64,000 nt of DNA, from positions 1 through 64,000 of the IMG/VR virus record IMGVR_UViG_3300033064_004648; one strand, 5' to 3'. The notes below the pieces were generated by a model. The model was not told the origin of the DNA and did no database searches. It was given only the letters and a program-made list of their open reading frames with translations. The translations under genes were made by a program, and so were the position numbers. Origin of the DNA: an uncultured virus (IMG/VR IMGVR_UViG_3300033064_004648). Lineage: Duplodnaviria > Heunggongvirae > Uroviricota > Caudoviricetes. Of the stretch, positions 5,657 to 46,851 are shown in pieces; within the stretch, counting starts at the first letter, position 1; each line of letters opens with the position of its first letter.

Positions 5657-5904
5657 AATTTAGAAAGAAACCAATAGTCGTTGAGGCCGAACAGTTTACA
5701 ATGGATTCAAAAGATCAAGTGTTTAATTGGGTAAACTGCAATAGATATGCCGACTTTGTTGACGGCAAACCTGTATTGATAATACAAACACTTGAAGGCG
5801 ATATGACTGTAAGCATTGGCGATTGGGTTATCGAAGGTATCAATGGAGAATTTTATCCTTGCAAACCAGATATTTTTGAAAAGACTTATGAAAAGGTAGA
5901 ATAG
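5653..5904 (+). CDS. Conserved phage protein (KFRKKP..VEA..IQTLEG..GDW..GEFYPCKPDIF family)
   Basis: Recognisable widespread phage family motif. Confidence 0.8.
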   Translation: MKFRKKPIVVEAEQFTMDSKDQVFNWVNCNRYADFVDGKPVLIIQTLEGDMTVSIGDWVIEGINGEFYPCKPDIFEKTYEKVE

Positions 5905-5930
5905 CAGAATGACTTTATGAGGAAAAAATA

Positions 5931-7196
5931 ATGAAAGAATTTTTTGAAAATTTCTTAAAAATATTACAAGAAAACCAGGTTCTTTTGACCACATTAGGTA
6001 TCGGTGGTGCTGGAACAATTATAATGTGGTTGAAGGGTGTGCCCCAAACATTTTTCAATTTATTAAAAAGAGAATTTACAACCGAGATGACTATCACTAG
6101 TCAAAATATTTCATTTTTTAATGTTATAAAATTGTTAGAAAAAACCTACGCAGATAAAAAATGGAGAAAATTAAAAGTTATGAACGGAAGATGGGGGGCT
6201 GAAGAAACTGTTCTTGGGATTGGATATGGACATCATACTTTGATATACAAAAAAAACCTTCTTTTTATAACCTTGGTAAAAGAATCTGCAAATCAAACCA
6301 ATTATGACAAAGATTCACTAACTTTTTTAAAGTTGGGCAGAGACTATGGACTTTTTAAACAAATTATAAGTGATGCTGATGAAATAGCAGAAGATAAAAG
6401 TTCTAACAAAATATACAAAATGGAGGACGGATGGCGCTATGTAAAAGACCAGAAAAAAAGGGCTTTAAGTAGTGTGTTTTTAGAAAAAACTAAGAAGAAA
6501 TATTTATTAGAAACCATAGATAAATTTATATCTAGCGAAGAATGGTATCTTTCACATGGTATTCCTTATCAATTAGGAATATTGTTATATGGTTCGCCTG
6601 GAACAGGTAAGACTAGCTTAATTAAGGCAATAGCGGCATATTTAAACTACTCAATTTATTATTTACCTAGTTCAAGATTATACAAAATTGAAAAAGCAGT
6701 GTCTTTATTGCCAGACAATTCTATTTTGGTGATTGAAGATATTGATACTAATGATATTACTAATAGAAGAGACAATGGATGGGATCAACCAGACGTACCC
6801 GAAGGTGCAAGTGGGACTGCTCCAACAACATCCAATAACAAATCTTCTGATGATAGAGACTTTGAAACTTTTTTGAAGATGGGATTGTCCGAGATACTAA
6901 ATTCTTTAGATGGCATTTTTGCTACTCACGGAAGAATTTTAATTGCTACCACAAACTACCTAGAATCATTGGATTCTGCATTAATTCGTCCTGGCAGAAT
7001 AGATATAAAAATAGAAGTAGGATATGTAAACAACGAAGTATTGAAAGAGTTTTGCAATAGTTTCTTTCCCGAAAACAAAATTAATTTTGATGAAATAAAG
7101 ATTAAGAAAAATAAACTTACCGTAGCATTATTGCAAAATATGATACTTGAAGGTAAAACATTACAAAATATTTTAGACTTTGTAGAAACCCAATAA
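5931..7196 (+). CDS. BCS1-like AAA+ ATPase with N-terminal TM segment
   Basis: WY..HGIPY.LGILLYGSPGTGKTS, IEDID, LSEILNSLDG, TTN..E.LD.ALIRPGRID. Confidence 0.85.
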   Translation: MKEFFENFLKILQENQVLLTTLGIGGAGTIIMWLKGVPQTFFNLLKREFTTEMTITSQNISFFNVIKLLEKTYADKKWRKLKVMNGRWGAEETVLGIGYGHHTLIYKKNLLFITLVKESANQTNYDKDSLTFLKLGRDYGLFKQIISDADEIAEDKSSNKIYKMEDGWRYVKDQKKRALSSVFLEKTKKKYLLETIDKFISSEEWYLSHGIPYQLGILLYGSPGTGKTSLIKAIAAYLNYSIYYLPSSRLYKIEKAVSLLPDNSILVIEDIDTNDITNRRDNGWDQPDVPEGASGTAPTTSNNKSSDDRDFETFLKMGLSEILNSLDGIFATHGRILIATTNYLESLDSALIRPGRIDIKIEVGYVNNEVLKEFCNSFFPENKINFDEIKIKKNKLTVALLQNMILEGKTLQNILDFVETQ

Positions 7197-7221
7197 AAGA
7201 ATGATTTTATGAGATAAGATA

Positions 7222-7407
7222 ATGTATAAATATAAACATACCATCACAAAAGAAATTATTGAGATAGAAGATATTATTGTTGATAGCAATATAAATTATT
7301 TCGATTCTCAGTTTGTTGAATGGTGGTGCCACATAAATGACATAACTAAAGAAATAGATAAATGGTCTGCAACTTATACGATTAGTGATAACGGTATGTT
7401 TAAGTAA
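7222..7407 (+). CDS. Hypothetical protein
   Basis: Short ORF after a site. Confidence 0.5.
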   Translation: MYKYKHTITKEIIEIEDIIVDSNINYFDSQFVEWWCHINDITKEIDKWSATYTISDNGMFK

Positions 7408-7408
7408 A

Positions 7409-7983
7409 ATGAAGTATCAAACAACGAAAGAGATCGAATTTGCTTGTATTAAACATGTTTGGAACGGCGGATCTTATCTTATAATCCCGAATGTAAAAGA
7501 TGGGTTCTTTGGGAAAAGAGAAGCTGACTTATTGGTTATTACTCCATCAAATTATCTGTTTGAAATTGAAATCAAGATAAGTATGGCTGACCTAAAAAAG
7601 ATGGTCAAAAAAATTTATTGCTACAAGATATATACTCTAATGATCTTAGAATCAAGAAAAAAATTTTTGCAATACCTGAAGAAATGTTTAATAAATATGA
7701 AGATAAAATAATTAAGTTATTGCCTAATTATGCAGGTTTATGGGTGGTTAAGAAATCAGGTGGTTATGTGGTTGAGAAATTAAAGGCTAAAAATAAAATA
7801 GGTGCCCGTAAATTGTCCGACAAAGAAAAAAATACTTTAATGAGACTAGGTTGTTTGAGGCTTTGGGGAATAAAGGGAAAATCTGTAGAGATTGACAGTA
7901 TTAAAAAAGATATAAGAAAGGTATTAAAAGGCGAAGATGTCAAAATATTGAAACAATATGTTGAAAAAAAGAAATATTGGTAG
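7409..7983 (+). CDS. PD-(D/E)XK / MmcB-like nuclease split by a -1 frameshift at 7594-7600
   Basis: READLL..EIEIKIS.ADLKK in frame 0 continues as DGQK...KIFAIPE..LP.YAGL in the -1 frame. Confidence 0.7.
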
Positions 7984-8008
7984 TATTTACCCTTGAAGAA
8001 AAATAGAC

Positions 8009-8728
8009 ATGATAATATATTTAACGACCAATAATATAAAAGGTAAAGTATACGTCGGCAAGCTGGTTGACGAAAGTAAGTCAACTTATCTCGGTTCTGG
8101 AACATGTGTTGGACGAGCGATCAAGCAATACGGTAAAGAAAATTTTAGCAGAATAACCTTAGAAGGCGGAATTACTGACCATGATTATTTGTGCAAAAGA
8201 GAAATTTATTGGATAGAATTCTATGATTCTACTAATCCAGAGATAGGATATAACCTTAGCGAAGGCGGACGCGGAGGTTATTCTGGATGTAAACATACGC
8301 CAGAAACACTTGAAAAAATGTCCGAAGCACAAAAGGGCGAAAACCACCCCATGTATGGGAAAAGAGGAAAAGAAACAGGTATGTTTGGAAAACACCATAC
8401 GGAAGAGGCGCGTAAAAAAATGTCTGAAGCAAACAAAGGCAAAAATCATCCAATGTACGGAAAACATCACACAGAAGAAGCATGTAAAAACATGTCTAAG
8501 TCGGCCAGAAATAGACCTCCTGCGTCTGAAGAAACATGCAAGAAAATATCGGAATCGAAAAGGGGAATAAATAATCCCAATGTCCTTGAAAAGGGAATGG
8601 TGTTGAATGTTTTAAAACTATTGAAAGATAATGTTTCTATGAAAAATATAACTAAAGAATTAAAAGTTTGCAATAGAACTATCCACAAAGTTAAAAACGG
8701 TGGCTATGATGATATTTATGATTTGTGA
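8009..8728 (+). CDS. GIY-YIG homing endonuclease with NUMOD3 repeats
   Basis: IIYLTTN..GKVYVG, YLGSG, GYNL; HPMYGK/HTEE repeats. Confidence 0.9.
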   Translation: MIIYLTTNNIKGKVYVGKLVDESKSTYLGSGTCVGRAIKQYGKENFSRITLEGGITDHDYLCKREIYWIEFYDSTNPEIGYNLSEGGRGGYSGCKHTPETLEKMSEAQKGENHPMYGKRGKETGMFGKHHTEEARKKMSEANKGKNHPMYGKHHTEEACKNMSKSARNRPPASEETCKKISESKRGINNPNVLEKGMVLNVLKLLKDNVSMKNITKELKVCNRTIHKVKNGGYDDIYDL

Positions 8729-8735
8729 AAGTGTC

Positions 8736-8764
8736 TTGACAAAACGCAAATAGTATGATATGAT
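8736..8764 (+). promoter_or_regulatory. sigma70-type promoter of the recombinase gene
   Basis: TTGACA-17-TATGAT. Confidence 0.75.
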
Positions 8765-8790
8765 ACTATCATTAACTATGGAGGTTTTCG

Positions 8791-9708
8791 GTGAATAAAT
8801 CTTTTATTGAATTAGAAAAATATTATGAATTAAAATCCATTGATTGTACTAAGGCGACCCTTTTTTATTATAAAAATACACTTGATAAATTTGTTTTATA
8901 TTTTGATATAAAAAACATTAGTGATTTATCAAATATAAAATCCGAGGATATACAACAGTACATGTATTTCTTAGCCAATAATAAAAATGCTAAAAATTCT
9001 AATACTGCAAAAAATTCCGCCAATGCTCATTTTCGGGTTATTAAAGCTTTCTGTAACTGGTTAATAGAACAAGATTATCTTGCAAAATCACCATGTGAAG
9101 GTATTAAACAATTTAAGATAGCTAAAGAAATAAAATTTTATTTAAAGAAAGATGAAATAAAATCTATTTTGTTGAATTGTAGAAGCGCAAAAGATAAACT
9201 TATAATTGCTCTATTATTATATACCGGTATTCGTGTTGGGGAAATATCCAAGATAAAAATTTCTGATATTGACGATAACCATCTTTTGATTCACGGCAAG
9301 GGACGTAAGGAGAGAAATGTAATTCTGATTCCTTATATTATAGATTTATTAGGAAAATACTTAGAAACAAGATCAGATGAAAACGAATTTTTACTTGTTT
9401 CTAGAAAGAATTTTGGAAAAAGGTCAAGGGAATTACACAGTGTTACACCCCAAGCTGTCAGAGATGTTATTAAAAAAATAGCCAAAAGATCTGACATTGA
9501 TACAAATAGAATAAATAACATTACGCCCCATACATTTAGACGAACGTTTGCTGTCAATCTTGCCAAAAATGGACACGCTTCTTCTTTTCAAATTCAAAAA
9601 GCATTGGGGCATTCAAATATTCAAACTACCCAAATTTATCTTGAGGCGGCCGGAGCCGAGATTTCAGATTCGGCATTATTAGGTCAGGTTGTGCCTATTG
9701 GAATATAA
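8791..9708 (+). CDS. Tyrosine recombinase (XerC/D-like)
   Basis: LYTGIRVGE (R), HGKGRKER (K), TPHTFRR (HxxR), LGHS, TTQIY (Y); N-terminal core-binding domain. Confidence 0.95.
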   Translation: MNKSFIELEKYYELKSIDCTKATLFYYKNTLDKFVLYFDIKNISDLSNIKSEDIQQYMYFLANNKNAKNSNTAKNSANAHFRVIKAFCNWLIEQDYLAKSPCEGIKQFKIAKEIKFYLKKDEIKSILLNCRSAKDKLIIALLLYTGIRVGEISKIKISDIDDNHLLIHGKGRKERNVILIPYIIDLLGKYLETRSDENEFLLVSRKNFGKRSRELHSVTPQAVRDVIKKIAKRSDIDTNRINNITPHTFRRTFAVNLAKNGHASSFQIQKALGHSNIQTTQIYLEAAGAEISDSALLGQVVPIGI

Positions 9709-9893
9709 TAAAAGGAGAACTTATTATGGTTGGTATTTTAAGATTTATCAGCAACATGTTCGTGACACTTATAGTTGTTCAGGAATTGTTTTTTCCAGAA
9801 TTACTTAAACCTTGGGCATGGTATAAATGGGTGTTCTTGGCAATTGGTGTTATTATTGTTAATTATCAAGAATAGTAATAAAAGGAGGATTTT

Positions 9894-10169
9894 ATGCAAG
9901 AATATAAAGGAACAGTCAGACGAGAAGAGAGTGAAGATTTAGAGGTTTTGAATCTTGTTCCGTCTTTTCACGAGAGTAATATCAAACGTCAGTCAGTTTG
10001 TATAGCTCCATTAACGAGACATGAAACTTCAATTATAATGTCAAAGACAAATGAAAAAGGAGGGTCTTCATTCTGTCATTTCATATTTACCGAAAGAGAA
10101 ACAGACATGTTGATTGAGGCTCTGCAAGAAGTAAAAACTAGATGGAAAGAGAATAAGGTAATAGAATGA
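9894..10169 (+). CDS. Hypothetical protein
   Basis: AAGGAGG RBS. Confidence 0.65.
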   Translation: MQEYKGTVRREESEDLEVLNLVPSFHESNIKRQSVCIAPLTRHETSIIMSKTNEKGGSSFCHFIFTERETDMLIEALQEVKTRWKENKVIE

Positions 10170-10175
10170 AGAAAG

Positions 10176-10370
10176 ATGGTTTTTATGCATACTAATATAA
10201 AAAAGTTAAAAAAGATGATAGGGTATTTTCAGGGATTTTCCGACGAAGAAGTTGTAGAAGTTGAAGTTGGAGATGTTAAAAAAGCATTATTAGACCTTTT
10301 AGAGTTAAAAGAAATGGTTGATGTTATTGCTCGCCAGGTTGAGAAATATTACGGAATACCAATAGGATAA
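10176..10370 (+). CDS. Hypothetical protein
   Basis: Stop codon inside a palindromic site. Confidence 0.55.
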   Translation: MVFMHTNIKKLKKMIGYFQGFSDEEVVEVEVGDVKKALLDLLELKEMVDVIARQVEKYYGIPIG

Positions 10371-10393
10371 AAGAAACATTTTATGAGGTTTAA

Positions 10394-10597
10394 ATGGAAG
10401 AAAAAGTAATTAATGGAGTTTTATGTTTCTCTAAAGATAGCGATTTGAAAGGTGGCGAAACAGAATGGGTTCCTTATACGCTTGAATCATTGACAACTGC
10501 TTTTAGGGCAATGAGATCAATGTATGAATCTGCTGATCGAAGAGCAAATAAATTAAATTGCATTGTTGAAAATGTTAGAAAAGATGTTAGATGGTAA
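10394..10597 (+). CDS. Hypothetical protein
   Basis: GAGG RBS supplied by the right arm of a site. Confidence 0.6.
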   Translation: MEEKVINGVLCFSKDSDLKGGETEWVPYTLESLTTAFRAMRSMYESADRRANKLNCIVENVRKDVRW

Positions 10598-10818
10598 CAT
10601 CCTATTCAAGAGGCCATAAAACATATTACAATGGGAGTGAGTGGCTATATTGTGATAACAATAAGCCAGAAGACGAAATGAGACCATGCGCAAGGTGCGG
10701 GAAGTCTCCCACGCCAGAAGGATATGATGCTTGCTTAGGTTATATTGAGGGAGTTAAAAGTGCTTGTTGTGGGCATGGAGTGTCTGTTGTAATAGAAATG
10801 AAAGATGAAACACAATAA
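10591..10818 (+). CDS. Cys-rich conserved phage protein
   Basis: RPC.RCG..PT.EG.DACLG...SACCGHG. Confidence 0.7.
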   Translation: MVTSYSRGHKTYYNGSEWLYCDNNKPEDEMRPCARCGKSPTPEGYDACLGYIEGVKSACCGHGVSVVIEMKDETQ

Positions 10819-10850
10819 AATTACAATTTTATGTGGTTTTAGGAAAACTT

Positions 10851-11339
10851 ATGGAAATAAAAAAAGTTAAAGCCCCAGTTTACAAAAATATTATAGATGG
10901 ATATAAGGAAGTAAACGTTTATATAACTTCCGATGGACAAAAATTTTCGGAACGCGATAAAGATGACGCTAACCGACACGAACATAGACTAAATTACGAA
11001 AAAAGATTATCTGATATAGAACAAGTAACTATCGAAAACATGTTTGATATGGTCCCTGAAAAATGGTTTTATGCTTCTACCAAAGAAGATTTGGATTTTT
11101 TGACAAACCTAAAAGAAGACAAATATAGAAAAGTAGAAATAAACGGAGACTTAAAAGTTGGCGAATGGATAGGGTGTTATGTTTTTGATTGTGGAGACTC
11201 AGGAGAAACTGCAATGTATTATACTCTTTCTTATATAAGGAGCAAAACTATTGAGTTTTTGGAAGATGTTATGAGTAAAACAAATTTAACTATATCTGAT
11301 AATCGCGAAGAACTTAATCGGAAAGATACTTCCGACTAG
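10851..11339 (+). CDS. Hypothetical protein
   Basis: AGGA RBS after a site. Confidence 0.65.
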   Translation: MEIKKVKAPVYKNIIDGYKEVNVYITSDGQKFSERDKDDANRHEHRLNYEKRLSDIEQVTIENMFDMVPEKWFYASTKEDLDFLTNLKEDKYRKVEINGDLKVGEWIGCYVFDCGDSGETAMYYTLSYIRSKTIEFLEDVMSKTNLTISDNREELNRKDTSD

Positions 11340-11393
11340 AAGCATAAAACGTACTTAATCGGCAATATGTTGCCGATTAAAAAAGGAGAAATA

Positions 11394-11609
11394 ATGACAT
11401 TAACAAACGAAGATTTAAATAATAGATTTACATATCATAAGCCAAATGAAAAAACTATAATGACCCATCAACTAATTCGTAATTTTGGTTTAGAATTAGC
11501 CAATGAATTAAACAATCTTTTGCCCGATGGACGAGAAAAGTCTTTGGCAATTACAAAATTAGAAGAAGTAGTTATGTGGGCAAACGCTTCTTTAGCGAGG
11601 AATAGCTAA
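11394..11609 (+). CDS. Acb2/Tad1-like helical hairpin protein, copy 1
   Basis: NRFTYH.P...REKSLAITKLEEVVMWAN resembles the Tad1 C-terminal helix. Confidence 0.65.
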   Translation: MTLTNEDLNNRFTYHKPNEKTIMTHQLIRNFGLELANELNNLLPDGREKSLAITKLEEVVMWANASLARNS

Positions 11610-11657
11610 AACCACATAAAAGATTGATTTTATATGATTTAGAAAAGGAAAAATAAA

Positions 11658-11873
11658 ATGACATTAGACGAAAAAGATTTATTAAATAGATTTACTTATC
11701 ATGCACCAAACGAAAGAGATGTATTAAACCATGAAGCAATTCGAAATTTTGGATTAGATTTAGCGAGAATATTGAATGACTTATTACCAGACTCAAGAGA
11801 AAAGTCATTAGCTATGACAAAACTTGAAGAAGCTATAATGTGGGCAAATGCTGCAATAGCGAGGAATAAGTAA
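11658..11873 (+). CDS. Acb2/Tad1-like helical hairpin protein, copy 2
   Basis: Close paralogue of the previous ORF (REKSLAMTKLEEAIMWAN). Confidence 0.65.
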   Translation: MTLDEKDLLNRFTYHAPNERDVLNHEAIRNFGLDLARILNDLLPDSREKSLAMTKLEEAIMWANAAIARNK

Positions 11874-11926
11874 AACCACATAAAAATATAATTTTATCAT
11901 ATTTTAAAGAGGCTACGAACATATAA

Positions 11927-12460
11927 ATGAATAGAAAAAAATACATTAATAGATACGATATTCAGAAACGTGTCGAAGAATTGGCGATTGAAATAGATTG
12001 TGATTATAGCGGTTTGGATGATCGTATTTGTATTGTCGGCATTTTGCGTGGCGCTTTTATTTTCTTGGCGGATATGTCAAGATTATTAGATACGAGACAC
12101 ACTATTGATTTTATTTCAATTGGTAGTTATGATAAAGATAATTCAGGAAATGTTAGGTTATTGATGGATACAAGAACCGATGTTTCAGGAAAACATGTTC
12201 TTATTGTAGAAGACATTATTGATAGCGGCAAAACAATTAATTATCTTGTTGACTTATTTTTAAATCGAAATGTAGCAAGTGTAAAAACATGTACCTTATT
12301 TAGAAAAAATGGATCAAAAGAAACCTCTAACATAGATTATATTGGATTTGATGTCCCTAAAGAACATTGGCTCGTTGGTTATGGCTTAGATTTTGATAAT
12401 AAATATAGAACATTACCAGATGTCGAAATATTAAAACAATCAGATGAGGAGCTAAATTAA
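11927..12460 (+). CDS. hpt: Hypoxanthine phosphoribosyltransferase
   Basis: VGILRGAFIFLAD, VLIVEDIIDSGKT, VGYGLD...YRTLP. Confidence 0.9.
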   Translation: MNRKKYINRYDIQKRVEELAIEIDCDYSGLDDRICIVGILRGAFIFLADMSRLLDTRHTIDFISIGSYDKDNSGNVRLLMDTRTDVSGKHVLIVEDIIDSGKTINYLVDLFLNRNVASVKTCTLFRKNGSKETSNIDYIGFDVPKEHWLVGYGLDFDNKYRTLPDVEILKQSDEELN

Positions 12461-13527
12461 TGCATAGAGGCGCATATATTATTGTCGGTGCACAATGGGG
12501 CGATGAGGCAAAAGGAATGGTGAGTGCTTATTTGTCCATAAGAGAAAATGCTAAAATTGTTTGTAGGGCTGGAACTGGACCAAACGCAGAACATGGTGTT
12601 TTTCTAAAAGATGAAAAAACATATATAAAAACAAATCAGTTGCCTTTAGGTTGGATATTCAATCCTGATATTCAAATTCGTATTGGGTCTGGTGTAGCCG
12701 TTGATCCAGTCAAACTAATGTATGAAATAAATAAATATAAATTACATAATCGTGTAAAAATAGATTATCGTTGTCCTATTATTACATCAGAACACATTAA
12801 AGCAGAGAAAAACAGCAAGGGAATGGCCTCTATTGGCTCAACATTTAGTGGAACCGGTTATTGTCGAGCAGACTTTATTTTACGAAAAGCAAAGCAGGCA
12901 CGAGACATAGAAGCATTAAAAGACTATATAACGGATTGTAGCACTGAGATAAATAATGAGGCTAGAACTGAAATTGTAATTATAGAGTCTTCACAAGGAA
13001 CATTTCTTTCATTAGCTTTAAGCGAAGATTATCCAAACACAACCTCCGATAATGTTACTGCAATGGCTGCCGCCGATGACGTATTGTTAAATTGGAAAAA
13101 CTTAAAAGAAGTAATTTTAGTTGTAAAAGCATTACCTACTCGCGAAGGTAGCGGAGATATAGGAGCAAGAGAATTATCGTCTGAAGAAATTATTTCTAAA
13201 GGGTTGGTTGAACCAAGTTCAATTGGCGGGAAAACAAGAAGAAAAGCCGAGGGAATTAATTTCGACATGCTAAAATATGCAGTAGAAGTAAATGGGGCAA
13301 CACAAATCGCACTTACATTTTGTGATCATTATGACCCTCAAATTAAAAATGCTAAAGCAATAAGTAAAATTACTCCAAGAATATGGGAATTGATTTATGA
13401 AATCGAAACTTCTACTGGTGTACCGGTTACTATTCTAAATACAGGTAAACCGTATAATTGTATTATTGATCGAACTGAAAATTCTGTTGATTGGGAGAGT
13501 ATAGATAACAATATTCTGAAATTATGA
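12460..13527 (+). CDS. purA: Adenylosuccinate synthetase family protein, short archaeal-type, divergent
   Basis: VGAQWGDEAKG, GPNAEH, ESSQG, YPNTTS, PTREG, NGATQIALTFCD. Confidence 0.85.
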   Translation: MHRGAYIIVGAQWGDEAKGMVSAYLSIRENAKIVCRAGTGPNAEHGVFLKDEKTYIKTNQLPLGWIFNPDIQIRIGSGVAVDPVKLMYEINKYKLHNRVKIDYRCPIITSEHIKAEKNSKGMASIGSTFSGTGYCRADFILRKAKQARDIEALKDYITDCSTEINNEARTEIVIIESSQGTFLSLALSEDYPNTTSDNVTAMAAADDVLLNWKNLKEVILVVKALPTREGSGDIGARELSSEEIISKGLVEPSSIGGKTRRKAEGINFDMLKYAVEVNGATQIALTFCDHYDPQIKNAKAISKITPRIWELIYEIETSTGVPVTILNTGKPYNCIIDRTENSVDWESIDNNILKL

Positions 13528-13844
13528 CAAAATTTATAAGAAAATTTATGGGAATATTTAAAAAACCCGAAGCTAAAAAACCTGATGACAAATATACCAA
13601 AGTTTTTAGGCAATTGGTGCAAGCTCCTAAGATAGACAAAGACATTGCAAATCTTCGTCGGTTTGGTAAGGGATATGTGCTTTCCAATCCAGAGGAGGGT
13701 CTATTCTGGGGGAATGATGAGAAAACAGCCATCAGGATTTACATGGATGAGGAAGCAGCTACTTTTGACCGAGACCGCTTGCCATCTTCCGATGGTTGGC
13801 GTGTTTTTTCGGTTGCAGTATTTTATACAGGCAAGAATAGTTAA
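13524..13844 (+). CDS. Hypothetical protein
   Basis: ATGA overlap with purA. Confidence 0.6.
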   Translation: MTKFIRKFMGIFKKPEAKKPDDKYTKVFRQLVQAPKIDKDIANLRRFGKGYVLSNPEEGLFWGNDEKTAIRIYMDEEAATFDRDRLPSSDGWRVFSVAVFYTGKNS

Positions 13845-13850
13845 GATAAA

Positions 13851-38551: not shown

Positions 38552-38770
38552 GCAAAAACCACATAAAACAATTATTTTATTGTATTTGAGAGATTGCTTA
38601 AAAGGAGATGAGATGAGCACACTACTATGTTTATTAGGAATTCATAAATGGGAATATTATTATACCGATCTGTTTATGCCAACCGATAAGTATTGTGTGA
38701 GGTGTTTAAAAACACAACACATAAGAGATTCTACAAATTTAGAAAGACAGATTTGTAAGGATCGTATATC

Positions 38771-38962
38771 ATGATTGACAAATCAAAACAAATATATTCA
38801 TGGCATTGTTTCGATGATATAGATGTAAATTGTTCTTGTGGAAAGGCTACGCACGCCGGTGATTATGATGATGAATCGGATTCATATCAATTTCAATGTG
38901 AAAATTGTGGTCAGCGTTGGGTTGTAATTGTTCAAGTTATTCCAGTCAAAGAAAATGATTAA
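38771..38962 (+). CDS. Zn-ribbon protein
   Basis: CSCG ... CENCG. Confidence 0.55.
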   Translation: MIDKSKQIYSWHCFDDIDVNCSCGKATHAGDYDDESDSYQFQCENCGQRWVVIVQVIPVKEND

Positions 38963-38964
38963 TT

Positions 38965-39345
38965 ATGCTTCCTGATCTTACAACATTATTACCAAAAACA
39001 ATTTCGGATCAAGAACTTTTAAAGTTATTTTTTACTTATCCTAGTACGATAGTTCCTAATTCAGGATCTATTATTTTTATACATGTTGCCGAAGGATATG
39101 ATATTAATAAGGAAGTTCAAAAGACAGAAAAAGAATTGGCAAGCATTGAGAAAAGATTGTTTAAATTATCAAATACGCTTAGCCAAAATAGTTTTTATAG
39201 CAATGCACCTGACGATGTTATAAATAAATTATGTTGGAAATTAATGGAATTAGAAAATGGTTATGATACAACAAATAGGAAATTGAATTATTTAAATTTA
39301 GCAATAATGAAATTTGGGAACAAAGTAAAATATGAAAACAATTAA
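38965..39345 (+). CDS. Protein with ValRS C-terminal coiled-coil-like (tRNA-binding arm) domain
   Basis: D..KE....EKEL......L....F...AP.DVI pattern. Confidence 0.6.
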   Translation: MLPDLTTLLPKTISDQELLKLFFTYPSTIVPNSGSIIFIHVAEGYDINKEVQKTEKELASIEKRLFKLSNTLSQNSFYSNAPDDVINKLCWKLMELENGYDTTNRKLNYLNLAIMKFGNKVKYENN

Positions 39346-39544
39346 GTTTATATATGATCTCAAACAAGAGGTACAAATAAAAAATCTTAATATAAAAGGT
39401 ATTGTTGTTGGATATTATTGTGGAGATACTGGCGTTCAATATCAGGTTGCATACTTTTTAAATGGAGATAGAACCGTAACTTATTTATATCCAGAAGAAA
39501 TATGTAAACTTAATGGGGAAGAAAAAGCAGGATTTTTGAAATGA
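39332..39544 (+). CDS. Hypothetical protein
   Basis: Operon-like overlap. Confidence 0.55.
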   Translation: MKTIKFIYDLKQEVQIKNLNIKGIVVGYYCGDTGVQYQVAYFLNGDRTVTYLYPEEICKLNGEEKAGFLK

Positions 39545-39768
39545 AAGATATTATGATAAGAAAGATGAATAAAGAAGAAGATTTAAGACCTATCGGGACT
39601 ATATTTGATATTGACATACCTCCCAATATTTGTTCGACAAGAATGAACAACGGGACTGTTATAACATATAAAGTTGTCGATCATATTGTCGTTTATCCTT
39701 ACGGCGAATATGGCCCAGCGAAATGGGTTGAAGAAATAAAAACAATAGAGATTGTTGAAACACAATAA
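39541..39768 (+). CDS. Hypothetical protein
   Basis: Ends ETQ* inside a site. Confidence 0.55.
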   Translation: MKDIMIRKMNKEEDLRPIGTIFDIDIPPNICSTRMNNGTVITYKVVDHIVVYPYGEYGPAKWVEEIKTIEIVETQ

Positions 39769-39795
39769 AATTGCTATTTTATGAGGCTTTAAAAA

Positions 39796-40512
39796 ATGAA
39801 AAATAATTTAGAAGGAAAGATTTTTGGTAGTTTGTTGGTAATTAGAAAGACTGATATACCGCCAAATTATAAAGCTAAAAGAAATTCATTTTGGTTGTGC
39901 AAATGTCAAAAGTGTGGAGAAGAAAAAATTAGGACAGGTAATAAATTAAGAAATATAAAAACATGTTCTTGTGAATATAAAGGTCTAAATTCAAAATATA
40001 AAAAATTTAATAAATACGATTTGTCAGGAAAATATGGAGTTGGATATACTCATGACAATCTTCGGTTTTACTTCGATTTAGAAGACTATGATAAAATAAA
40101 AAATTACTCTTGGACTTTATCTGGCAACGGCTATCATCTCTTTACAAATGACTATATTACTCGTAAAAGAATAATGTTGCATCGTTTAGTTTATGGTTTA
40201 ACAAACGGCCAGATAGGATTTATAAATAAAAATTGTTTAGATGTAAGAAAGGCAAATCTAAGAATCGGAAAACATAAGGAACATCTTAGAAATAGCAAAA
40301 TATATAAAAACAATAAAAGCGGAATTATCGGTGTTCATTGGTGCAATAGAGACGAGAAATGGATTGCCCAAATTATGGTCGATTATAAATCTATATATCT
40401 TGGTGGCTATGAAAATTTTGAAGAAGCGGTAAAAATCAGGCTTGAGGGAGAAAAAAAATATTTTGGCAAATTTGCACCTCAGCGACATCTATATAAAAAA
40501 TATGGAATATAA
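39796..40512 (+). CDS. HNH/AP2 endonuclease (HNH possibly degenerate)
   Basis: FDLEDY, LHRL, LD.RK.NLR, N.SG..GV.W AP2 tail; bracketed by sites. Confidence 0.8.
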   Translation: MKNNLEGKIFGSLLVIRKTDIPPNYKAKRNSFWLCKCQKCGEEKIRTGNKLRNIKTCSCEYKGLNSKYKKFNKYDLSGKYGVGYTHDNLRFYFDLEDYDKIKNYSWTLSGNGYHLFTNDYITRKRIMLHRLVYGLTNGQIGFINKNCLDVRKANLRIGKHKEHLRNSKIYKNNKSGIIGVHWCNRDEKWIAQIMVDYKSIYLGGYENFEEAVKIRLEGEKKYFGKFAPQRHLYKKYGI

Positions 40513-40543
40513 TAAAATCCGCCTTTTATTATAGGAGAAAATA

Positions 40544-40891
40544 ATGAAAATGTCAAAAGAAGAAATTTTAAAAATGCCTGCAGGCAGAGAGATGGATGCA
40601 TTGGTGGCTGAACATATATTTAAAACACCATTTCAAAAACCTGGTCATGGCCCATGTTGTACTTGTCAAACTTGTGGTTGGAGTTTTGACGACTGTCAAT
40701 GTGGTTATAGTGAAAGTCGCGATATGGCATGGGAAATACTAGAAAAATTTGCATATTATGAACTTAAAAAACTATTTTTAAGATATAATGTTTATATTGA
40801 AAATAATGATAATATTAGAAGTGGACATTCGCAAGAAAATACGGCACCTCTTGCTATCTGCAAAGCGGCGCTACTTGCACAAATACAATAA
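40544..40891 (+). CDS. Phage ABA-sandwich domain protein
   Basis: M.AGRE.DALVAE..YS....AW...EK..TAPLAICKAAL. Confidence 0.7.
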   Translation: MKMSKEEILKMPAGREMDALVAEHIFKTPFQKPGHGPCCTCQTCGWSFDDCQCGYSESRDMAWEILEKFAYYELKKLFLRYNVYIENNDNIRSGHSQENTAPLAICKAALLAQIQ

Positions 40892-40922
40892 AATCCACAT
40901 TTTATCGTAAAGGGAGAAGCAA

Positions 40923-41606
40923 ATGAAGTCTCACAAATATGGGGTTTACAAAATATTAAACTTATCTGACCGAAAAAGATATTACGGTGGCGGAATTTTA
41001 AAGGCACGAAAGCTATATCATTTTAATCTATTGAGAATTAATAAACATGATAACTCTAATCTTCAAAAAGCATATAATTTAAGCGAAGAAGAAAACTTTA
41101 AATTTATTGTTCTATTATATTGTGAGCCTTTTGAATTAACTCGCTATGAGCAATTTTTCGTAGATAAATATAAAAAATCTAAATTACTATATAATATTTG
41201 TATAGATAATGTTGAAAATAAATCTGGTGTTAAAACATCCCAAAAAACAAAAGAAAAAATATCTAAAACATCGAAGGGCAGAATCTTTTCTCCTGAGACT
41301 AGAAAAAAGATTTCAGAAGCGGTAAAAGGTAAAAACAGTCCTATGTATGGAAGGTTTGGAAAGAATCATCCTAGGTATGGAAAACCTCATACTTTAGAGA
41401 CGATTAAAAAATTATCGGGCATAAATCATTATAATATCACAAAGAAGAATGTCATATTGGATATAGCCAAAATGTTAAAAGAAGGCTGTTCCGTAAAAAA
41501 TATTACAACCACATTAAATGTTGGCAGAAAGGTTGTCTATGGCGTTAAGAATGGATTTTATAATAATATATATGATTTAAAAAATACCGACTATTTAAAA
41601 AAATAA
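40923..41606 (+). CDS. GIY-YIG homing endonuclease (NUMOD3)
   Basis: GVYKI.N...K.YYG; H.NS.LQKAY; PMYG; KNGFY..IYDL. Confidence 0.85.
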   Translation: MKSHKYGVYKILNLSDRKRYYGGGILKARKLYHFNLLRINKHDNSNLQKAYNLSEEENFKFIVLLYCEPFELTRYEQFFVDKYKKSKLLYNICIDNVENKSGVKTSQKTKEKISKTSKGRIFSPETRKKISEAVKGKNSPMYGRFGKNHPRYGKPHTLETIKKLSGINHYNITKKNVILDIAKMLKEGCSVKNITTTLNVGRKVVYGVKNGFYNNIYDLKNTDYLKK

Positions 41607-41668
41607 AAATAATATTGTAATGACAGAAAAATCAAGAGCATTGTTAGAAAAAATATTAAAGGAGTTAA

Positions 41669-42031
41669 ATGAAAAAAGTATTTGAGGTTTCAATAAGTTT
41701 TACAATTGATCTTATAAAAAATAAGTTATTTCACACAAAAACATTTAGTTGGGATTTTGATATTCCTCTCAAACATTATTTATATACCAATGATGAAAAA
41801 TCTGCTAAACGAATCTTAGAACTTAATGAACTATGGAGAGACGATCATCTAGTTCGTTTACTACAAACCGAATATGATTTTGAAGGAATGGAGTATACAA
41901 TTTTGAACAAAAAATCTAGCGCTGACGAAATAAAAGGAGCAAGTTTATTACATCTAATGGGGCAAATGCGAGCAGAAGATTTCTTTGAATATTGTTCTAA
42001 TTTTATGCCCTTGACAAATACGGAAAAGTAA
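41669..42031 (+). CDS. Hypothetical protein
   Basis: AAGGAG RBS. Confidence 0.6.
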   Translation: MKKVFEVSISFTIDLIKNKLFHTKTFSWDFDIPLKHYLYTNDEKSAKRILELNELWRDDHLVRLLQTEYDFEGMEYTILNKKSSADEIKGASLLHLMGQMRAEDFFEYCSNFMPLTNTEK

Positions 42032-42039
42032 GGTATGAT
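42011..42039 (+). promoter_or_regulatory. sigma70-type promoter of the rtcB operon
   Basis: TTGACA-17-TATGAT. Confidence 0.65.
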
Positions 42040-42066
42040 ATATAGAGAAGATTTTATGGAGAAATA

Positions 42067-44133
42067 ATGAAAGTAATATCGTCAGAAAGAATGCCAATTA
42101 AAATGTGGCTTGAAAATATTGAGGATGGCGCATTGTCACAAGCAAAAGACATTGCCAATTTGCCATTTGTTTTTAAGCACATTGCTATCATGCCCGATAG
42201 TCATCAGGGCTATGGAATGCCTATTGGTGGCGTAATGGCTACAAAAGGCGTAATCGTACCTAATGCCGTTGGGGTTGATATTGGCTGTCTTGATAAAAAT
42301 ACAGAGTTTCTTACGCAAAGTGGCTGGCAAAAAATTAGTGATTATCAAAAGGGCGACAATATTTTACAATACAATAAAGAGACAAATATAGCTTCTTACG
42401 TAAGTCCTATCGCATATATTGTAAAACCTTGTGATACGTTTTTTCATTTTAAGAATAGCAAGGGTTTAGATCAGATGGTAAGCGAAGAACACAAAATGTT
42501 GATTTGGAAGGGATATAAGACAAGAGGTTATAATTTAGAAGATATTGGTCCAATAGAATTATCTAGTAAAGGAAAATCTCTTTCCAAAGGATTTTATGGT
42601 TTTAAAGCGTCTTTTAATTTGGCTAATGGATTTGGTGTTGATATGACGAACGATGAAATAAGACTAGATATAATGATAACCGCAGATGGATGTATAAAAC
42701 ATTCAAAAGAAAATACCCATCAGATTTATTTGCACTTTAAAAAAGTTCGAAAAATAAAAAGAGCAAAAGAATTATTGACAAGAAACAATATTTTTTATAA
42801 AGAAACCGCAGGCAAAGATGGATCAACACACATGTATTTTTTTGTTGATAAAAAATATTCAAAAAATTTGTCAAAATATTGGTTGGCAAATAGAAGCCAA
42901 CTAAAAGTCATATCTGAAGAATGTCTGTTGTGGGACGGACATGTTGGATATCGTCCTTATTTTTCATCCACCGACAAAGAAAGTGCTGATTTAATTCAGT
43001 TTGCATTTTCTTCTGTTGATATAAGAGCAGGTATATGTACGGTAAATTCAAAAAATCCTGCTCATAAAACTATATATTTTGTTACTCCGACAAGAAACAA
43101 TATAGTTGGAATAAATGTTGCTCCAACCATAGTAAAGTCTAAAGATAAAAAAAAGTATTGCTTTACTGTTCCAAGCGGTTATTTTGTTGCAAGACGGAAT
43201 GGAAAGATTTTTATAACAGGAAATTGTGGTATGATGGCAGTAAGAACAAGTCTAACCGATATTTCGACCGATCGAATAAAACAAATTATGGGCGAAATAC
43301 GCAAAGTTATTCCAGTTGGTTTTAAACATAATAAAACCGCTCAGTCTTGGGAAGGATTTAGTCGTGCGCCCGATATTTCCATAATTCAAAACCAATTAAC
43401 CTCCGCAAGAAAGCAATTAGGCACACTCGGCTCGGGCAACCATTTTGTAGAAATACAAAAAGGTGATGACGGACACATATGGATAATGCTTCACTCCGGT
43501 AGCCGAAATTTTGGTCTAAAGGTAGCCTCTGAATATCATAAAAAAGCTAAGTTTCTATGTGAAAAATGGTATTCTAGTGTTCCAAAGGATCTTGCCTTTC
43601 TTCCAATAGAAAGCCCTGAAGGAAAAGAATATTACGAAGCCATGAACTATGCTTTAGAATTTGCACAAGCAAGCAGAGATTTGATCATGGAAAAAATTCT
43701 TGACAATATTGAAACAAATGTATTGGAGACAGTCAATATCCATCATAATTTTGCAGCGTTCGAACACCATTTTGGTAAAGATGTTTTGGTCCACCGGAAA
43801 GGCGCAACAAGAGCCTATAAAGGCGAGATAGGCATTATTCCTGGCTCAATGGGAACAAGTAGTTACATTGTTGAAGGACTAGGAAATCCCGACAGTTTTA
43901 TGTCCTGTTCTCATGGTGCAGGTAGGCGTATGGGGCGCGGTCAAGCAAAAAGAACATTGTCCCTAGTAGAAGAACAAGAGAAAATGGAAGGCGTTGTTCA
44001 CGGCTTGCGGACGTCCGATGATTTAGATGAAGCACCAGGCGCATACAAAGATATTGATGTAGTCATGGAAGATCAAAAAGACCTTGTAAAAATATTGGTA
44101 AAACTAACTCCATTAGCAAGTATAAAAGGATAA
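42067..44133 (+). CDS. rtcB: RtcB RNA ligase containing an intein
   Basis: MPD.H.GYG.PIG, GVDIG|CG, GTLGSGNHF.E, HSGSR, HHN, HRKGA, SHGAGR, EAP.AYK. Confidence 0.95.
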   Translation: MKVISSERMPIKMWLENIEDGALSQAKDIANLPFVFKHIAIMPDSHQGYGMPIGGVMATKGVIVPNAVGVDIGCLDKNTEFLTQSGWQKISDYQKGDNILQYNKETNIASYVSPIAYIVKPCDTFFHFKNSKGLDQMVSEEHKMLIWKGYKTRGYNLEDIGPIELSSKGKSLSKGFYGFKASFNLANGFGVDMTNDEIRLDIMITADGCIKHSKENTHQIYLHFKKVRKIKRAKELLTRNNIFYKETAGKDGSTHMYFFVDKKYSKNLSKYWLANRSQLKVISEECLLWDGHVGYRPYFSSTDKESADLIQFAFSSVDIRAGICTVNSKNPAHKTIYFVTPTRNNIVGINVAPTIVKSKDKKKYCFTVPSGYFVARRNGKIFITGNCGMMAVRTSLTDISTDRIKQIMGEIRKVIPVGFKHNKTAQSWEGFSRAPDISIIQNQLTSARKQLGTLGSGNHFVEIQKGDDGHIWIMLHSGSRNFGLKVASEYHKKAKFLCEKWYSSVPKDLAFLPIESPEGKEYYEAMNYALEFAQASRDLIMEKILDNIETNVLETVNIHHNFAAFEHHFGKDVLVHRKGATRAYKGEIGIIPGSMGTSSYIVEGLGNPDSFMSCSHGAGRRMGRGQAKRTLSLVEEQEKMEGVVHGLRTSDDLDEAPGAYKDIDVVMEDQKDLVKILVKLTPLASIKG
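42286..43224 (+). mobile_element. Intein (313 aa) with LAGLIDADG-like endonuclease region
   Basis: Starts CLDKNTEFLT..GW; ends YCFTVPSG.FVARRNG.IFITGN followed by extein Cys. Confidence 0.9.
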
Positions 44134-44134
44134 A

Positions 44135-44602
44135 ATGAATAATACTTGGTTTACATCAGATCAACATTTTGGACACAAGAATATTATCAAGCTCTGTGGA
44201 CGTCCATTTTCTTCTGTTGAAGAAATGGATTCCTTCATTATATCTTATTGGAATGATTGCATATCCAACAAAGATACAATCTATGTGCTCGGTGATTTTG
44301 CATGGAAGAATCCAAAACCTTATATTGAACGATTGAGAGGAAATAAAATATTTATTATTGGTGGACATGATAAGAAACTAAAAGGCGATAATTTGGTGGA
44401 AGTTAAAATAAATGATGTATGGTTTGTCCTATGTCATTACCCTTTATATAGCTGGAATAAGGAACACTATGGCTCAATTCATCTACACGGACATATACAT
44501 AATAATCATATAGAGCCAAAACGTAATAGAATAAATGTTAGCGTTGATGTCTGGGGTTTCGCACCAGTACCTTTTGAACAAATAATGGCAATTAAAGGAT
44601 AA
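44135..44602 (+). CDS. Calcineurin-like metallophosphoesterase
   Basis: FTSD.HFGH, LGDF, G.HD, CHYP, HGH.H, NV.VD. Confidence 0.9.
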   Translation: MNNTWFTSDQHFGHKNIIKLCGRPFSSVEEMDSFIISYWNDCISNKDTIYVLGDFAWKNPKPYIERLRGNKIFIIGGHDKKLKGDNLVEVKINDVWFVLCHYPLYSWNKEHYGSIHLHGHIHNNHIEPKRNRINVSVDVWGFAPVPFEQIMAIKG

Positions 44603-44608
44603 TTAAAA

Positions 44609-44968
44609 ATGTCAAATCTCATAGTTGAAATATGCAAAATTGAATCTATCGAAAAGCATCCCAATGCCGATAGGCTCTCTATAATAAAAGTAAAAGACTG
44701 GCATTGTATTGTCGGATTAGATAACAGGGAAATAAATATTAGAGAAGCATCAAATGAAGAAAATATAAAGAATAGAAAATCTAAAAATTCAAATAACACA
44801 TCTGGTTATCGCAATGTTAGTCTAATCGATGGGTTCTATCGAATTCAGATTCAAATTGATGGGAAAAATCATAGATTTTCAGAAAAATTTGATGACGTGG
44901 ATAAAGCGGGATTATTCGCAAAGAAAATGAGAGAAAAATATTATGGCGAATTCTCTGGTGAAAATTAA
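44609..44968 (+). pseudogene. Chimera: N-terminus of a DRB0094-type RNA ligase fused to an HNH/AP2 C-terminus
   Basis: HPNADRL..W.CIVG joined to LDNR.N.R..NN.SGYRNV..RE.YYGEF. Confidence 0.7.
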
Positions 44969-45162
44969 TATAATAATACCGTTTTTATGCGGAGGAATAT
45001 AAAAATGAAAGATGAATATAGAAAAAAAGATAAATATAGAAAACTTAGTAATTATCTACAAAAAAGATTTGATAAAATATCTAATGGAAAAGTAAATAGG
45101 TTCAAGTTTTATCAATTAGTATTCTTAGATATGATTCTTGATAAAATTGAAGGGAATAAATA

Positions 45163-45375
45163 GTGAAAGAATATACAGAAACAACTGAATATTGGACAGT
45201 AGAAAGTAAATATATCGATCCCGTAGAGCCTTTTTATTGGGGCACAACTGGCGACATTTATAATAAAGAAATCGCCAATTCCACTTATAATGAATTAAAA
45301 AGTAAATATGCAATTACTCGACTGATTCATCATATAACAAACAGCAAAATTATAAGAGAACATATTAATGAATAA
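45163..45375 (+). CDS. Hypothetical protein
   Basis: AAGGGA RBS, GTG start. Confidence 0.5.
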   Translation: MKEYTETTEYWTVESKYIDPVEPFYWGTTGDIYNKEIANSTYNELKSKYAITRLIHHITNSKIIREHINE

Positions 45376-45534
45376 ATATTACTATCACATGATTATTGAA
45401 TTAATATTATATTATGGAATTGGATTACAACCACATGATGTAATAGATAAATACATTGAAGAATACATGAAGGAAATGAATTTAGATGGCAAATCCCTTG
45501 TAAAAGAAAAGAATAGATTGCAGAAGGAAATAAA

Positions 45535-45732
45535 ATGAAACAAAATATGAAAAAAGACAGAGAGTTAGACAGAATAGATAAATCAATCTTAATGGTGTTA
45601 TATAAGAATGACCCTATAGGAATGACGAAAGAGGAAATTACAGAATCAATTGATGCAGAAGGCTTATTGTTTATGTCAGATGAAGCGTTTGAGAAATATC
45701 GTACAGATTTAATTGCTTGGAAAAAAGCATAG
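45535..45732 (+). CDS. Hypothetical protein
   Basis: AAGGA RBS. Confidence 0.55.
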   Translation: MKQNMKKDRELDRIDKSILMVLYKNDPIGMTKEEITESIDAEGLLFMSDEAFEKYRTDLIAWKKA

Positions 45733-45786
45733 ACATAACTATACCAAATAAAACTGTTAGTTTATGTGGTTTAGAAAAGAGAGAAT

Positions 45787-45990
45787 ATGAAGCAAATTGA
45801 TCCAGTTTTAAATTTAGGATGTAATATATGGAAGACAGAGAAATGTTTTTGTTGCGGTGGAGAGTATGAAAACCCATGTTGGTATATTTTTGAAGATATA
45901 GGAAACAAAACATTCCAAGTTCCTATTTGCAATAAATGCTCTAATGAAAGAGATAAAAACTTTTCTGGATTAAAAGAAACAGCCATATAA
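45787..45990 (+). CDS. Zn-finger hypothetical protein
   Basis: CFCCG ... ICNKC; between two sites. Confidence 0.55.
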   Translation: MKQIDPVLNLGCNIWKTEKCFCCGGEYENPCWYIFEDIGNKTFQVPICNKCSNERDKNFSGLKETAI

Positions 45991-46020
45991 TAAAAACACT
46001 ATTTTGTCATAAGGAGAAAG

Positions 46021-46290
46021 ATGGGAACTTTTGATAGTTATGGAGATAAAGGAATACAAATAAAAGCAGGAGAATGCATGATGTGCCATTATGAAGTAGG
46101 TGATGTTTGCGATTTAAAAGACGGCATTTATTTAGGCTACAATGGGGCAATAGTTGTTCTTGATGGAAAATTTATCGCTGAATTTCCTCATATTTTTACA
46201 AAATATGGAAGCATAATAGATAACCATGACATTATAGATCAATATAATCCAGTTGTTCAGGTTATGAATGATTTAAATAAAAAAGAATAA
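46021..46290 (+). CDS. Hypothetical protein
   Basis: AAGGAG RBS; between two similar sites. Confidence 0.65.
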   Translation: MGTFDSYGDKGIQIKAGECMMCHYEVGDVCDLKDGIYLGYNGAIVVLDGKFIAEFPHIFTKYGSIIDNHDIIDQYNPVVQVMNDLNKKE

Positions 46291-46305
46291 AAGTACTATT
46301 TTGCC

Positions 46306-46851
46306 ATGAAAAATAAATATATAATCAAAAATAATATTGTAAAAATATTCTTGCCTCGTCGAAATAATAAGGCAAGTATAGAAACATTAATTGACACAGA
46401 AGATTTTGATAAAGTCAACAAGTACACCGGAACTTTTGTTTCTGGATATAACAGGCAAAAGGAAGAGGTCTATGCCCAGATATGTCTATATTTAGGAATG
46501 ATTGATGGAAGTCCTAAATATAAAGTTTTAAGGCTACATAGAATTATAATGGATTGTAATAATCGTAGTCTTCATGTAGATCATAAGAATAGAGATTCTT
46601 TAGACAATAGAAAATCAAATTTACGTATTGTTAGCAATGCAGACAATTTAAAAAACAGAGAATCAAAAAATTCAAACAATAAAACGGGTTATCGCAATGT
46701 TTGTTTTTATAAGGGGTTATATCTTGTTCAACTACAAGTTGGCGGAAAAAATAAGTTGCTTGGAAGATTTAAGAATGTGAATAAAGCAAATATATTTGCT
46801 AAAGAAATGCGTAAAAAATATTACAAAGAATTTAAAGGAAAAACAACATAG
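46306..46851 (+). CDS. HNH/AP2 endonuclease
   Basis: LHR.IM, VDH.NR..LDNRKSNLR, NN.TGYRNV. Confidence 0.85.
   Translation: MKNKYIIKNNIVKIFLPRRNNKASIETLIDTEDFDKVNKYTGTFVSGYNRQKEEVYAQICLYLGMIDGSPKYKVLRLHRIIMDCNNRSLHVDHKNRDSLDNRKSNLRIVSNADNLKNRESKNSNNKTGYRNVCFYKGLYLVQLQVGGKNKLLGRFKNVNKANIFAKEMRKKYYKEFKGKTT

Follow-up and report, generated by a model that had tools for sequence, protein, structure and literature searches.

Predicted recombinase-type core sites whose unique spacers may serve as locus addresses for module exchange among SPbeta-like phages

Exchange of genes at short repeated sites has been described in several forms. At the pdif/xrs sites of Acinetobacter, Xer-type recombination requires that the centres match, and a pair of such events has been proposed as the way in which plasmids trade genes (PMC11705084). 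In XerH sites, which have a 6-bp centre, the enzyme recognizes the inner 5 bp of both arms (PMC5241119). In T4-type phages, repeated intergenic cassettes of promoter and stem-loop (PeSL) drive modular shuffling in variable regions (PMC2839356), and integron-type attC arrays are also borne by phages (PMC9892861). Here, we describe an array of short palindromic sites in IMG/VR virus record IMGVR_UViG_3300033064_004648, an uncultured virus of the Caudoviricetes. The analysed stretch, called the window, comprises the initial 64 kb of this 122.8-kb phage record; a 168-kb record (G001) is the same phage. We propose that the sites are predicted core sites of the tyrosine recombinase type, and that their spacers are locus addresses for the exchange of modules between phages. 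To this reading we assign a probability of roughly 0.65.

The core of the site is ATAAAA-N6-TTTTAT, which occurs in the window in 35 perfect copies at the 6-bp spacing, whereas every other spacing between 2 and 12 gives 0–2 copies. The outer arms tend towards AAAACCAC on the left and GTGGTTTT on the right; the best case is a site of the form 14-6-14 at 31456–31489, whose arms are perfect over 14 bp, in line with the original prediction that both arms of this copy carry the same variant. The median distance between sites of the array is 810 bp. Sites are at gene junctions and have the orientation of transcription; the stop codon of the preceding gene is often in or beside the left arm and the ribosome-binding site (RBS) comes after the right arm, whereas a sigma-70-like promoter is close to only 4 of 35. 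In G001, the accessory arm contains 48 of the 55 perfect cores and the structural arm six; none lies in the blocks for glycosyltransferases and replication. The arms of one site are no more complementary to each other than shuffled arms (p 0.52–0.78 in the window), and in relatives with the variant arms ATGAAA/TTTCAT their association is even negative (odds ratios 0.14, 0.29, 0.69 and 0.55), with A-C mismatch combinations being frequent between paired positions. Because covariation is absent or negative, the arms are best regarded as independent double-stranded half-sites that form no hairpin.

The sites are not restricted to this phage. The window phage is SPbeta-like but distant, not at the genus level: ten proteins match SPbeta at 23–36% identity, and the genes common to both include terminase, Pol III, tail and YomM. 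Apart from G001, which is identical over the 19.7 kb compared, IMG/VR holds no close relative, the next-best primase-helicase having 60% identity. SPbeta itself has 13 strict cores versus 0–1 at other spacings, which makes the strict core its commonest spaced hexamer palindrome, and 34 sites of the form TAAAA-N6-TTTTA; SPbeta-like phages have 25–90 sites per genome. The 6-6-6 palindrome is conserved in phages from 26% to 41% G+C. In some of them (G050 [L303–L310], G006 and G099) the half-site is shifted genome-wide to ATGAAA/TTTCAT, in G050 at 44 of 90 sites; the shift can be used to map specificity residues. In the literature searched, which excluded the 1999 SPbeta genome paper (it may mention the repeat), subscription journals and supplements, no account of the sites was found.

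The evidence for crossover at the sites comes from a comparison of 100 kb from each of 13 SPbeta-like phages of Bacillus, in which loci present in at least three genomes were counted and flanks of 40 bp were considered; since these phages are related, the p-values overstate independence. The order of spacers is kept between strains and the flanks assort freely around a fixed spacer. Around the spacer GATGCA, for example, three left contexts are joined to six right contexts among the matches listed. All four combinations of two left and two right flanks (the four-gamete pattern) are found at 10 of 41 site loci, but, among windows that lack a site, only at 1 of 133 at an RBS and at 0 of 103 at a stop codon (Fisher p = 2e-8; 1e-4 if only switching loci are counted), and windows moved by 60–120 bp give the pattern at 0–1 of about 50. 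Switching on both sides is seen at 21 of 41 site loci versus 14 of 236 control junctions. Of 292 pairs of joins with one flank in common, 233 have the same spacer and a further 24 are one base off; near 74481 in BUCT083 (L410), the site has TGGGTA where relatives with the same flanks have TTCCCA or TTCACA, a near-inversion of the spacer. The identity shared by four-gamete parents is mostly 16–34 bp and as little as 17–20 bp (18–20 at GATGCA). Arm variants follow their own flank (left arm 139 of 143 pairs, right arm 142 of 149) and are less tightly tied to the flank on the other side (116 of 149 and 101 of 143), and the crossover thus sits between the arms.

Boundaries of homology point in the same direction. 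In 10 of the 13 phages, 221 of 1413 boundaries are at sites versus 18.7 expected if uniform, a null that ignores the bias towards intergenic DNA, and the boundaries peak at both core edges. A junction-level control in SPbeta gave a boundary at 10 of 10 site junctions versus 20 of 88 gene starts without a site. It is very probable that crossover occurs at the sites, and probable that a tyrosine recombinase is its cause; as read from the genomes, crossovers between related phages fall within the 18-bp core, the spacer being fixed per position and unique per genome. The preference of the original prediction for recombination over an operator or terminator role is thereby well supported, chiefly by the comparison of SPbeta-like phages.

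In the mechanism we favour, the two inverted arms around a 6-bp overlap would split the accessory arm into modules that each comprise one gene or a few. Strand exchange would need matching overlaps, so that each spacer would be an address, and two crossovers at addresses common to co-resident phages would swap the intervening module; unlike spacers inside one genome would block its deletion. New sites would be born from a neighbour by insertion or duplication, which would copy the spacer, and the resulting identical pair would be unstable until the spacer mutates, as in neighbours with two mismatches, or until one arm decays, as at 5901 and 28809. Selection against self-deletion would drive neighbouring spacers apart. 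Birth from neighbours together with forced divergence or decay would then account for the similarity of spacers between neighbours.

This similarity is seen in the window. For the 35 perfect cores, which were picked blind to the spacer, the mismatch between adjacent spacers is 3.21 versus 3.90 ± 0.18 in permuted arrays (p = 2e-4), so that adjacent spacers are indeed closer than shuffled ones, as had been proposed; 12 of 34 adjacent pairs are at two mismatches or fewer versus 3.8 expected, and at lags 2–5 the similarity is not significant. The effect is robust to adding near-perfect sites or to removing site 30457, which precedes an HNH paralogue (p ≤ 3.5e-4). Adjacent outer arms gave p = 0.51 (left) and p = 0.035 (right). 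All spacers quoted in the original prediction are present at their positions, and the 24-bp repeat (28800–28823 = 29295–29318) is exact and not extendable. Its statement that neighbours share their spacer holds as similarity, but sharing is overstated: of the 11 quoted pairs scored, one is identical, two differ at one base and eight at two. Both identical quoted pairs contain a decayed site (5901 with three arm mismatches, 28809 with two), and among perfect-core neighbours identical spacers are found in 0 of 34 pairs and a one-base difference in 1 of 34. With fuller site sets, the effect reaches significance in 4 of 11 held-out sets (G050 0.004, G006 0.024, G024 2e-4, part of G016 1e-4), G012 gave p = 0.07 and the combined p is 5e-6; six sets, including SPbeta and the remainder of G001, are without the effect.

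Neighbouring spacers are similar yet kept apart. Among 355 held-out adjacent pairs none is identical, one differs at one base and 50 differ at two. When every within-genome pair is counted, there are 0 identical spacers versus 6.1 expected and 56 with one mismatch versus 92, and no genome tested has duplicate spacers among intact sites. Because identical and one-mismatch spacers are depleted, divergence looks selected and not clock-like, and the suggestion that spacer divergence ranks cassettes by age is doubtful. Identical spacers beside a decayed site are enriched in the window phage (4 versus 0.78 expected, p = 0.005, partly post hoc); three of these four pairs seem genuine, including one that lies outside the window. 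As the enrichment is not significant in 14 other genomes, it was rejected as a general rule.

By analogy, the predicted site system works most like the pdif exchange of Acinetobacter. There, too, many sites with a 6-bp centre flank accessory genes, and two intermolecular events at closely matching centres exchange genes (PMC11705084); apparent exchange between molecules at matching central regions is likewise found in natural phage genomes. The differences are that the sites described here are in a phage genome, number 25–90, are oriented with the genes and each have a unique spacer; that their core is symmetric (AAAA-N6-TTTT), whereas Xer sites are ATAA-N6-TTAT with distinct arms for XerC and XerD (PMC11705084), so that the phage core does not match the Xer core; and that the recombinase is probably a single phage-encoded one instead of the XerCD of the host. 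With XerH/difH and Cre/loxP the system has in common the fold of the candidate enzyme, inverted arms and a 6-bp centre, and with XerH also the specific inner 5 bp (PMC5241119), but those systems have one site per replicon for dimer resolution and not dozens that are coded differently. Integrons resemble it in their compact, co-oriented modules and tyrosine recombinase (PMC9892861 for phage-borne arrays); they differ in that the phage sites are not of the hairpin type, there is no single insertion point, and modules are replaced at many fixed addresses. The sites do not match attC hairpins, as their arms do not covary. PeSLs are also repeated intergenic elements of variable phage regions, but consist of promoter plus stem-loop (PMC2839356), whereas the sites described here have an 18-bp core, no hairpin covariation and a position-specific spacer; a PeSL cassette was rejected on the grounds that only 4 of 35 sites are near a promoter and the arms do not covary.

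The SPbeta repeated element (SPBRE), bound by MrpR (SroF), is found in the same phage family, and is likewise a repeated intergenic A-rich motif read by a protein of the recombinase fold. However, that motif is non-palindromic, is found at about 10 promoters and is bound by a catalytically dead monomer (PMC10516654; bioRxiv 2025.11.27.690993), as compared with about 34 sites in SPbeta. Identity with SPBRE was rejected: all 10 MrpR regions identified by chromatin affinity precipitation and sequencing (PMC10516654) share another motif, derived here, and four of the 10 hold a site. The SroF box of phi3T also differs from the site (bioRxiv 2025.11.27.690993). SroF/MrpR may be a paralogue that lost its activity and was co-opted for repression. 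In SPbeta-like Bacillus phages (L377–L436), double A-tract boxes resembling the SroF operator of phi3T lie against sites far above chance (0–6 per genome versus 0.1–0.4 expected), so that operator or promoter units may be among the modules that are swapped.

Which enzyme would act at the sites? The window encodes a XerC/XerA-like tyrosine recombinase (Table 1), whose best matches among solved structures are XerA/XerC/XerD, ahead of IntI4. Orthologues are present in several site-rich relatives, but there is no match in SPbeta, G016 or 17 of 17 records of the G052 group, and it was therefore rejected as the sole enzyme; it may assist exchange. The leading candidate is the YomM-type recombinase of the phage. 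The protein has a predicted Xer/Cre-type fold (predicted local distance difference test, pLDDT, 86), and the gene is present in 12 of 12 SPbeta relatives. In 43 YomM homologues the catalytic columns are occupied by R (43), K (40), H (43), R (40), W/H (43) and Y (42). YomM loci are mostly from Paenibacillus and Clostridia, with some other taxa, according to genome titles. Around 38 such loci, the core is present 68 times at 6 bp versus 5–13 times at other spacings, some of these loci being redundant and one coming from the window phage. A site often follows the end of the YomM-type gene within about 80 bp (L483:2211, L488:11011, L489:3074, L494:11017, L495:11020, L502:11029, L508:11081, L511:11091 and L519:10936). 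Fourteen records were picked by the YomM gene alone: the three over 100 kb carry 69, 16 and 23 sites and the 11 shorter ones 0–9. G069 is intermediate in site number. No function of yomM was found in the literature searched, and the consulted part of a study of SPbeta relatives (bioRxiv 2021.11.22.469490) is without mention of yomM. The odds that the YomM-type recombinase is the catalyst are about even. Somewhat more tentative is the wider proposal of a dedicated, genome-wide exchange system in which YomM and 25–90 uniquely coded sites would form an ordered address map for the whole population; it would allow accessory, defence and regulatory modules to be swapped in register between co-resident phages without self-deletion.

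Several observations weigh against address-coded exchange or against YomM as its enzyme. Away from sites lie 84% of the homology boundaries. In the G052 group (10 records) the effect is weak: site loci are four-gamete at 0 of 22 versus 2 of 122 controls, with flank switching at 14 of 22 versus 45 of 122, and most single-gene indels there (L313–L361), among the matches listed, are bounded by 5–40 bp of RBS or start-codon microhomology; judged from their ends, these indels are a clear case of relaxed homologous shuffling. The two site-to-site indels among the matches listed joined spacers that differ at three and five of six bases, and a few joins between unlike spacers exist among natural genomes. 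In contigs of four runs (two studies) placed on 21600–41500, one of these runs being perhaps the source, none of 13 joints is from site to site and no excision joint was seen at a site. Four laboratory hybrids of phi3T and SPbeta have 21 parent-switch intervals, of which 11 are narrow and none of these 11 contains a site, several of the narrow ones being back-to-back and possibly artefacts of the parent record used; the remaining 10 are wide, contain sites and are not resolvable. According to the authors of the hybrids, 15 of 16 junctions fall within homology, and the sole non-homologous one, "following yosA" (Dragos et al., bioRxiv 2020.05.06.055103), may be at the nearby SPbeta site at 116414. 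In NC_001884 this site (116414–116431) is just downstream of yosA; its spacer, TATTCC, is also that of a phi3T site at 107931, and the flanks at this address are unrelated. The neighbour effect did not replicate with strict cores in other phages (79 independent pairs, p = 0.28; lag 2 gave p = 0.013, one among several tests), and the mean effect is seen in 0 of 13 SPbeta-like Bacillus phages. As for YomM, the second catalytic Arg is Lys in 3 of 43 homologues (SPbeta, Goe13 and G024); G030 and G033 are rich in sites without a YomM match, both records being only 54–63% complete; and two short YomM-bearing records rated complete (G096 and G097) have 0 sites. Six held-out records with the gene have 10–47 sites and nine primase-selected relatives without it 0–2 per strand, but the six were originally picked by site match and the correlation is confounded by kinship.

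Ordinary recombination, as these junctions suggest, is clearly operating as well, and the sites could be linkers for it: the Sak4-like annealing protein or RecA would use the 18-bp identity, and the palindrome would be kept for another reason. Such linkers would also predict that spacers are retained and unique; phage annealing proteins can act on homology that is short and diverged (PMC3945230), the laboratory hybrids cross within ordinary homology, and the indels of the G052 group, among the matches listed, use short RBS microhomologies. We nevertheless regard this as unlikely, since it leaves unexplained the 6-6-6 palindrome at 26%–41% G+C and the genome-wide ATGAAA/TTTCAT variant; the shared identity of 17–20 bp falls short of the 30 bp given for Red-beta (PMC3945230), RBS junctions are four-gamete at 1 of 133 only, and the presence of sites goes along with that of the YomM-type gene. 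An array of the integron kind, into which circular cassettes insert with duplication of the spacer and in which divergence is a clock, would fit the compact, co-oriented modules, the neighbour similarity in the window and four held-out phages, and the three pairs of the window phage in which the spacers are identical and one partner is decayed. To this extent the claim that integration duplicates the spacer stands, but the dominant pattern is module replacement: strains differ by replacement between common addresses. With 0 identical and one one-mismatch pair in 355, both listed site-to-site indels joining unlike spacers, and no empty allele with a duplicated spacer in the contigs of the four runs, which covered 21600–41500 and not 5931–7196, we consider such an array improbable.

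It is also quite improbable that the sites are operators or architectural elements bound by a protein of the recombinase fold in the manner of MrpR/SroF, that they were multiplied by local duplication and that crossovers result from gene boundaries. The SPbeta master repressor is indeed a catalytically dead tyrosine recombinase (PMC10516654), and SroF reads A-tracts containing ATAAAA (bioRxiv 2025.11.27.690993), boxes of which abut some sites. However, the motif derived from the 10 MrpR target promoters is a different one and only four of these regions hold a site, promoters are near 4 of 35 window sites only, both recombinases of the window phage retain their catalytic residues, and binding alone predicts neither unique spacers nor crossover between the arms. 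Least of all would we expect the sites to act in RNA, as a hairpin, a terminator or a signal for processing ahead of the RBS. Inverted repeats that are oriented with the genes and lie directly before many RBSs suggest one, as do the matching variants in both arms at 31456–31489; but arm complementarity equals that of shuffled arms, covariation is negative with A-C mismatches common, and Rfam gives tRNA as the only family in the window. A hairpin identity was rejected on this evidence.

The features of the window are collected in Table 1. The BCS1-like ATPase is between GAATGA sites as predicted, the first of them being decayed. For the "small MTase" the flanking repeats stand, but the methyltransferase identity is partial, as the match covers 232–370 of the 458 positions of profile phrog_799. 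The protein of 5931–7196 (BCS1_N + AAA) is PHROG 7485 and unusual for a phage; BCS1-type proteins are mostly eukaryotic. Further genes include an Acb2/Tad1-type anti-defence gene (11367–11609) and a tandem copy of this region (11658–11873, 73% identical), with a site after each; a phosphoribosyltransferase with an adenylosuccinate-synthetase-like gene (11927–13527); and an EcoRI-type methyltransferase with a GmrSD-HNH nuclease (35498–37521) between sites 35417 and 37529, a defence module. An RNA repair set (32571–35428 and 42067–44133) comprises an RlaP-like nucleotidyltransferase, a CCA-adding-like enzyme and RtcB, the last carrying a LAGLIDADG-like insert, possibly an intein. tRNA genes are at 22868–22979, 37835–37918 and 48679–48916; the 112-nt Rfam match at 22868, missed by ARAGORN, may contain an intron. 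A strong sigma-70-like promoter (TTGACA...TATAAT type, family D17) is repeated at 3364, 20470, 22768, 47700, 54921 and 59215.

Table 1 Coordinates of the site array, individual sites and associated genes (window positions unless another record is named)
Feature	Position	Strand	Remarks
Site array	3992..63045	+	~43 co-oriented sites: 35 perfect cores and 8 near-perfect or decayed
Decayed site, spacer GAATGA	5901..5918	+	3 arm mismatches
BCS1-like AAA ATPase between two GAATGA sites	5931..7196	+	PF08740 + AAA; stop codon inside left arm of 7193
Intact site, spacer GAATGA	7193..7210	+	
XerC/XerA-like tyrosine recombinase, second candidate	8791..9708	+	R148 K173 H247 R250 H274 Y283 intact
Site, spacer TGAATC	21970..21987	+	
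Site, spacer TGAAGG	22542..22559	+	
Near-perfect site, spacer TGAGGA	26304..26321	+	
Site, spacer CGAGGA	26605..26622	+	
24-bp direct repeat, copy 1	28800..28826	+	core at 28809, spacer GGATAA, right arm decayed (2 mismatches)
Partial DNA methyltransferase open reading frame, module between two GGATAA sites	28884..29315	+	phrog_799 profile
24-bp direct repeat, copy 2	29295..29321	+	intact core at 29304, spacer GGATAA
Site, spacer GGATAG	30457..30474	+	upstream of HNH gene paralogous to HNH gene after 29304
Full 14-6-14 palindromic site, spacer AGATAA	31456..31489	+	
Site, spacer TCCGCC	40512..40529	+	
Site, spacer TCCACA	40888..40905	+	
Weak site, spacer ACACTA	45990..46007	+	
Weak site, spacer GTACTA	46287..46304	+	
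AAA_24 ATPase before primase-helicase, probably Sak4-like annealing protein	49747..50727	+	position and family; SPbeta yorG so annotated
Site, spacer TAGTTC	60345..60362	+	
Site, spacer TGATTC	60659..60676	+	
YomM-type recombinase, leading candidate, outside window	G000 86142-87161	-	full catalytic set

If true, address-coded exchange would be a natural multi-address system for cassette exchange, and a recombinase that discriminates dozens of 6-bp addresses would be useful for genome engineering. Whether the mosaic boundaries of phage genomes arise by homology or by illegitimate recombination has long been debated (PMC3945230). The boundaries described here map to an 18-bp core with recombinase geometry, and this in the model phage SPbeta. 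Dedicated linkers are the third proposed source of phage mosaic boundaries. Crossover of modules at the sites could explain how SPbeta-like genomes become mosaics.

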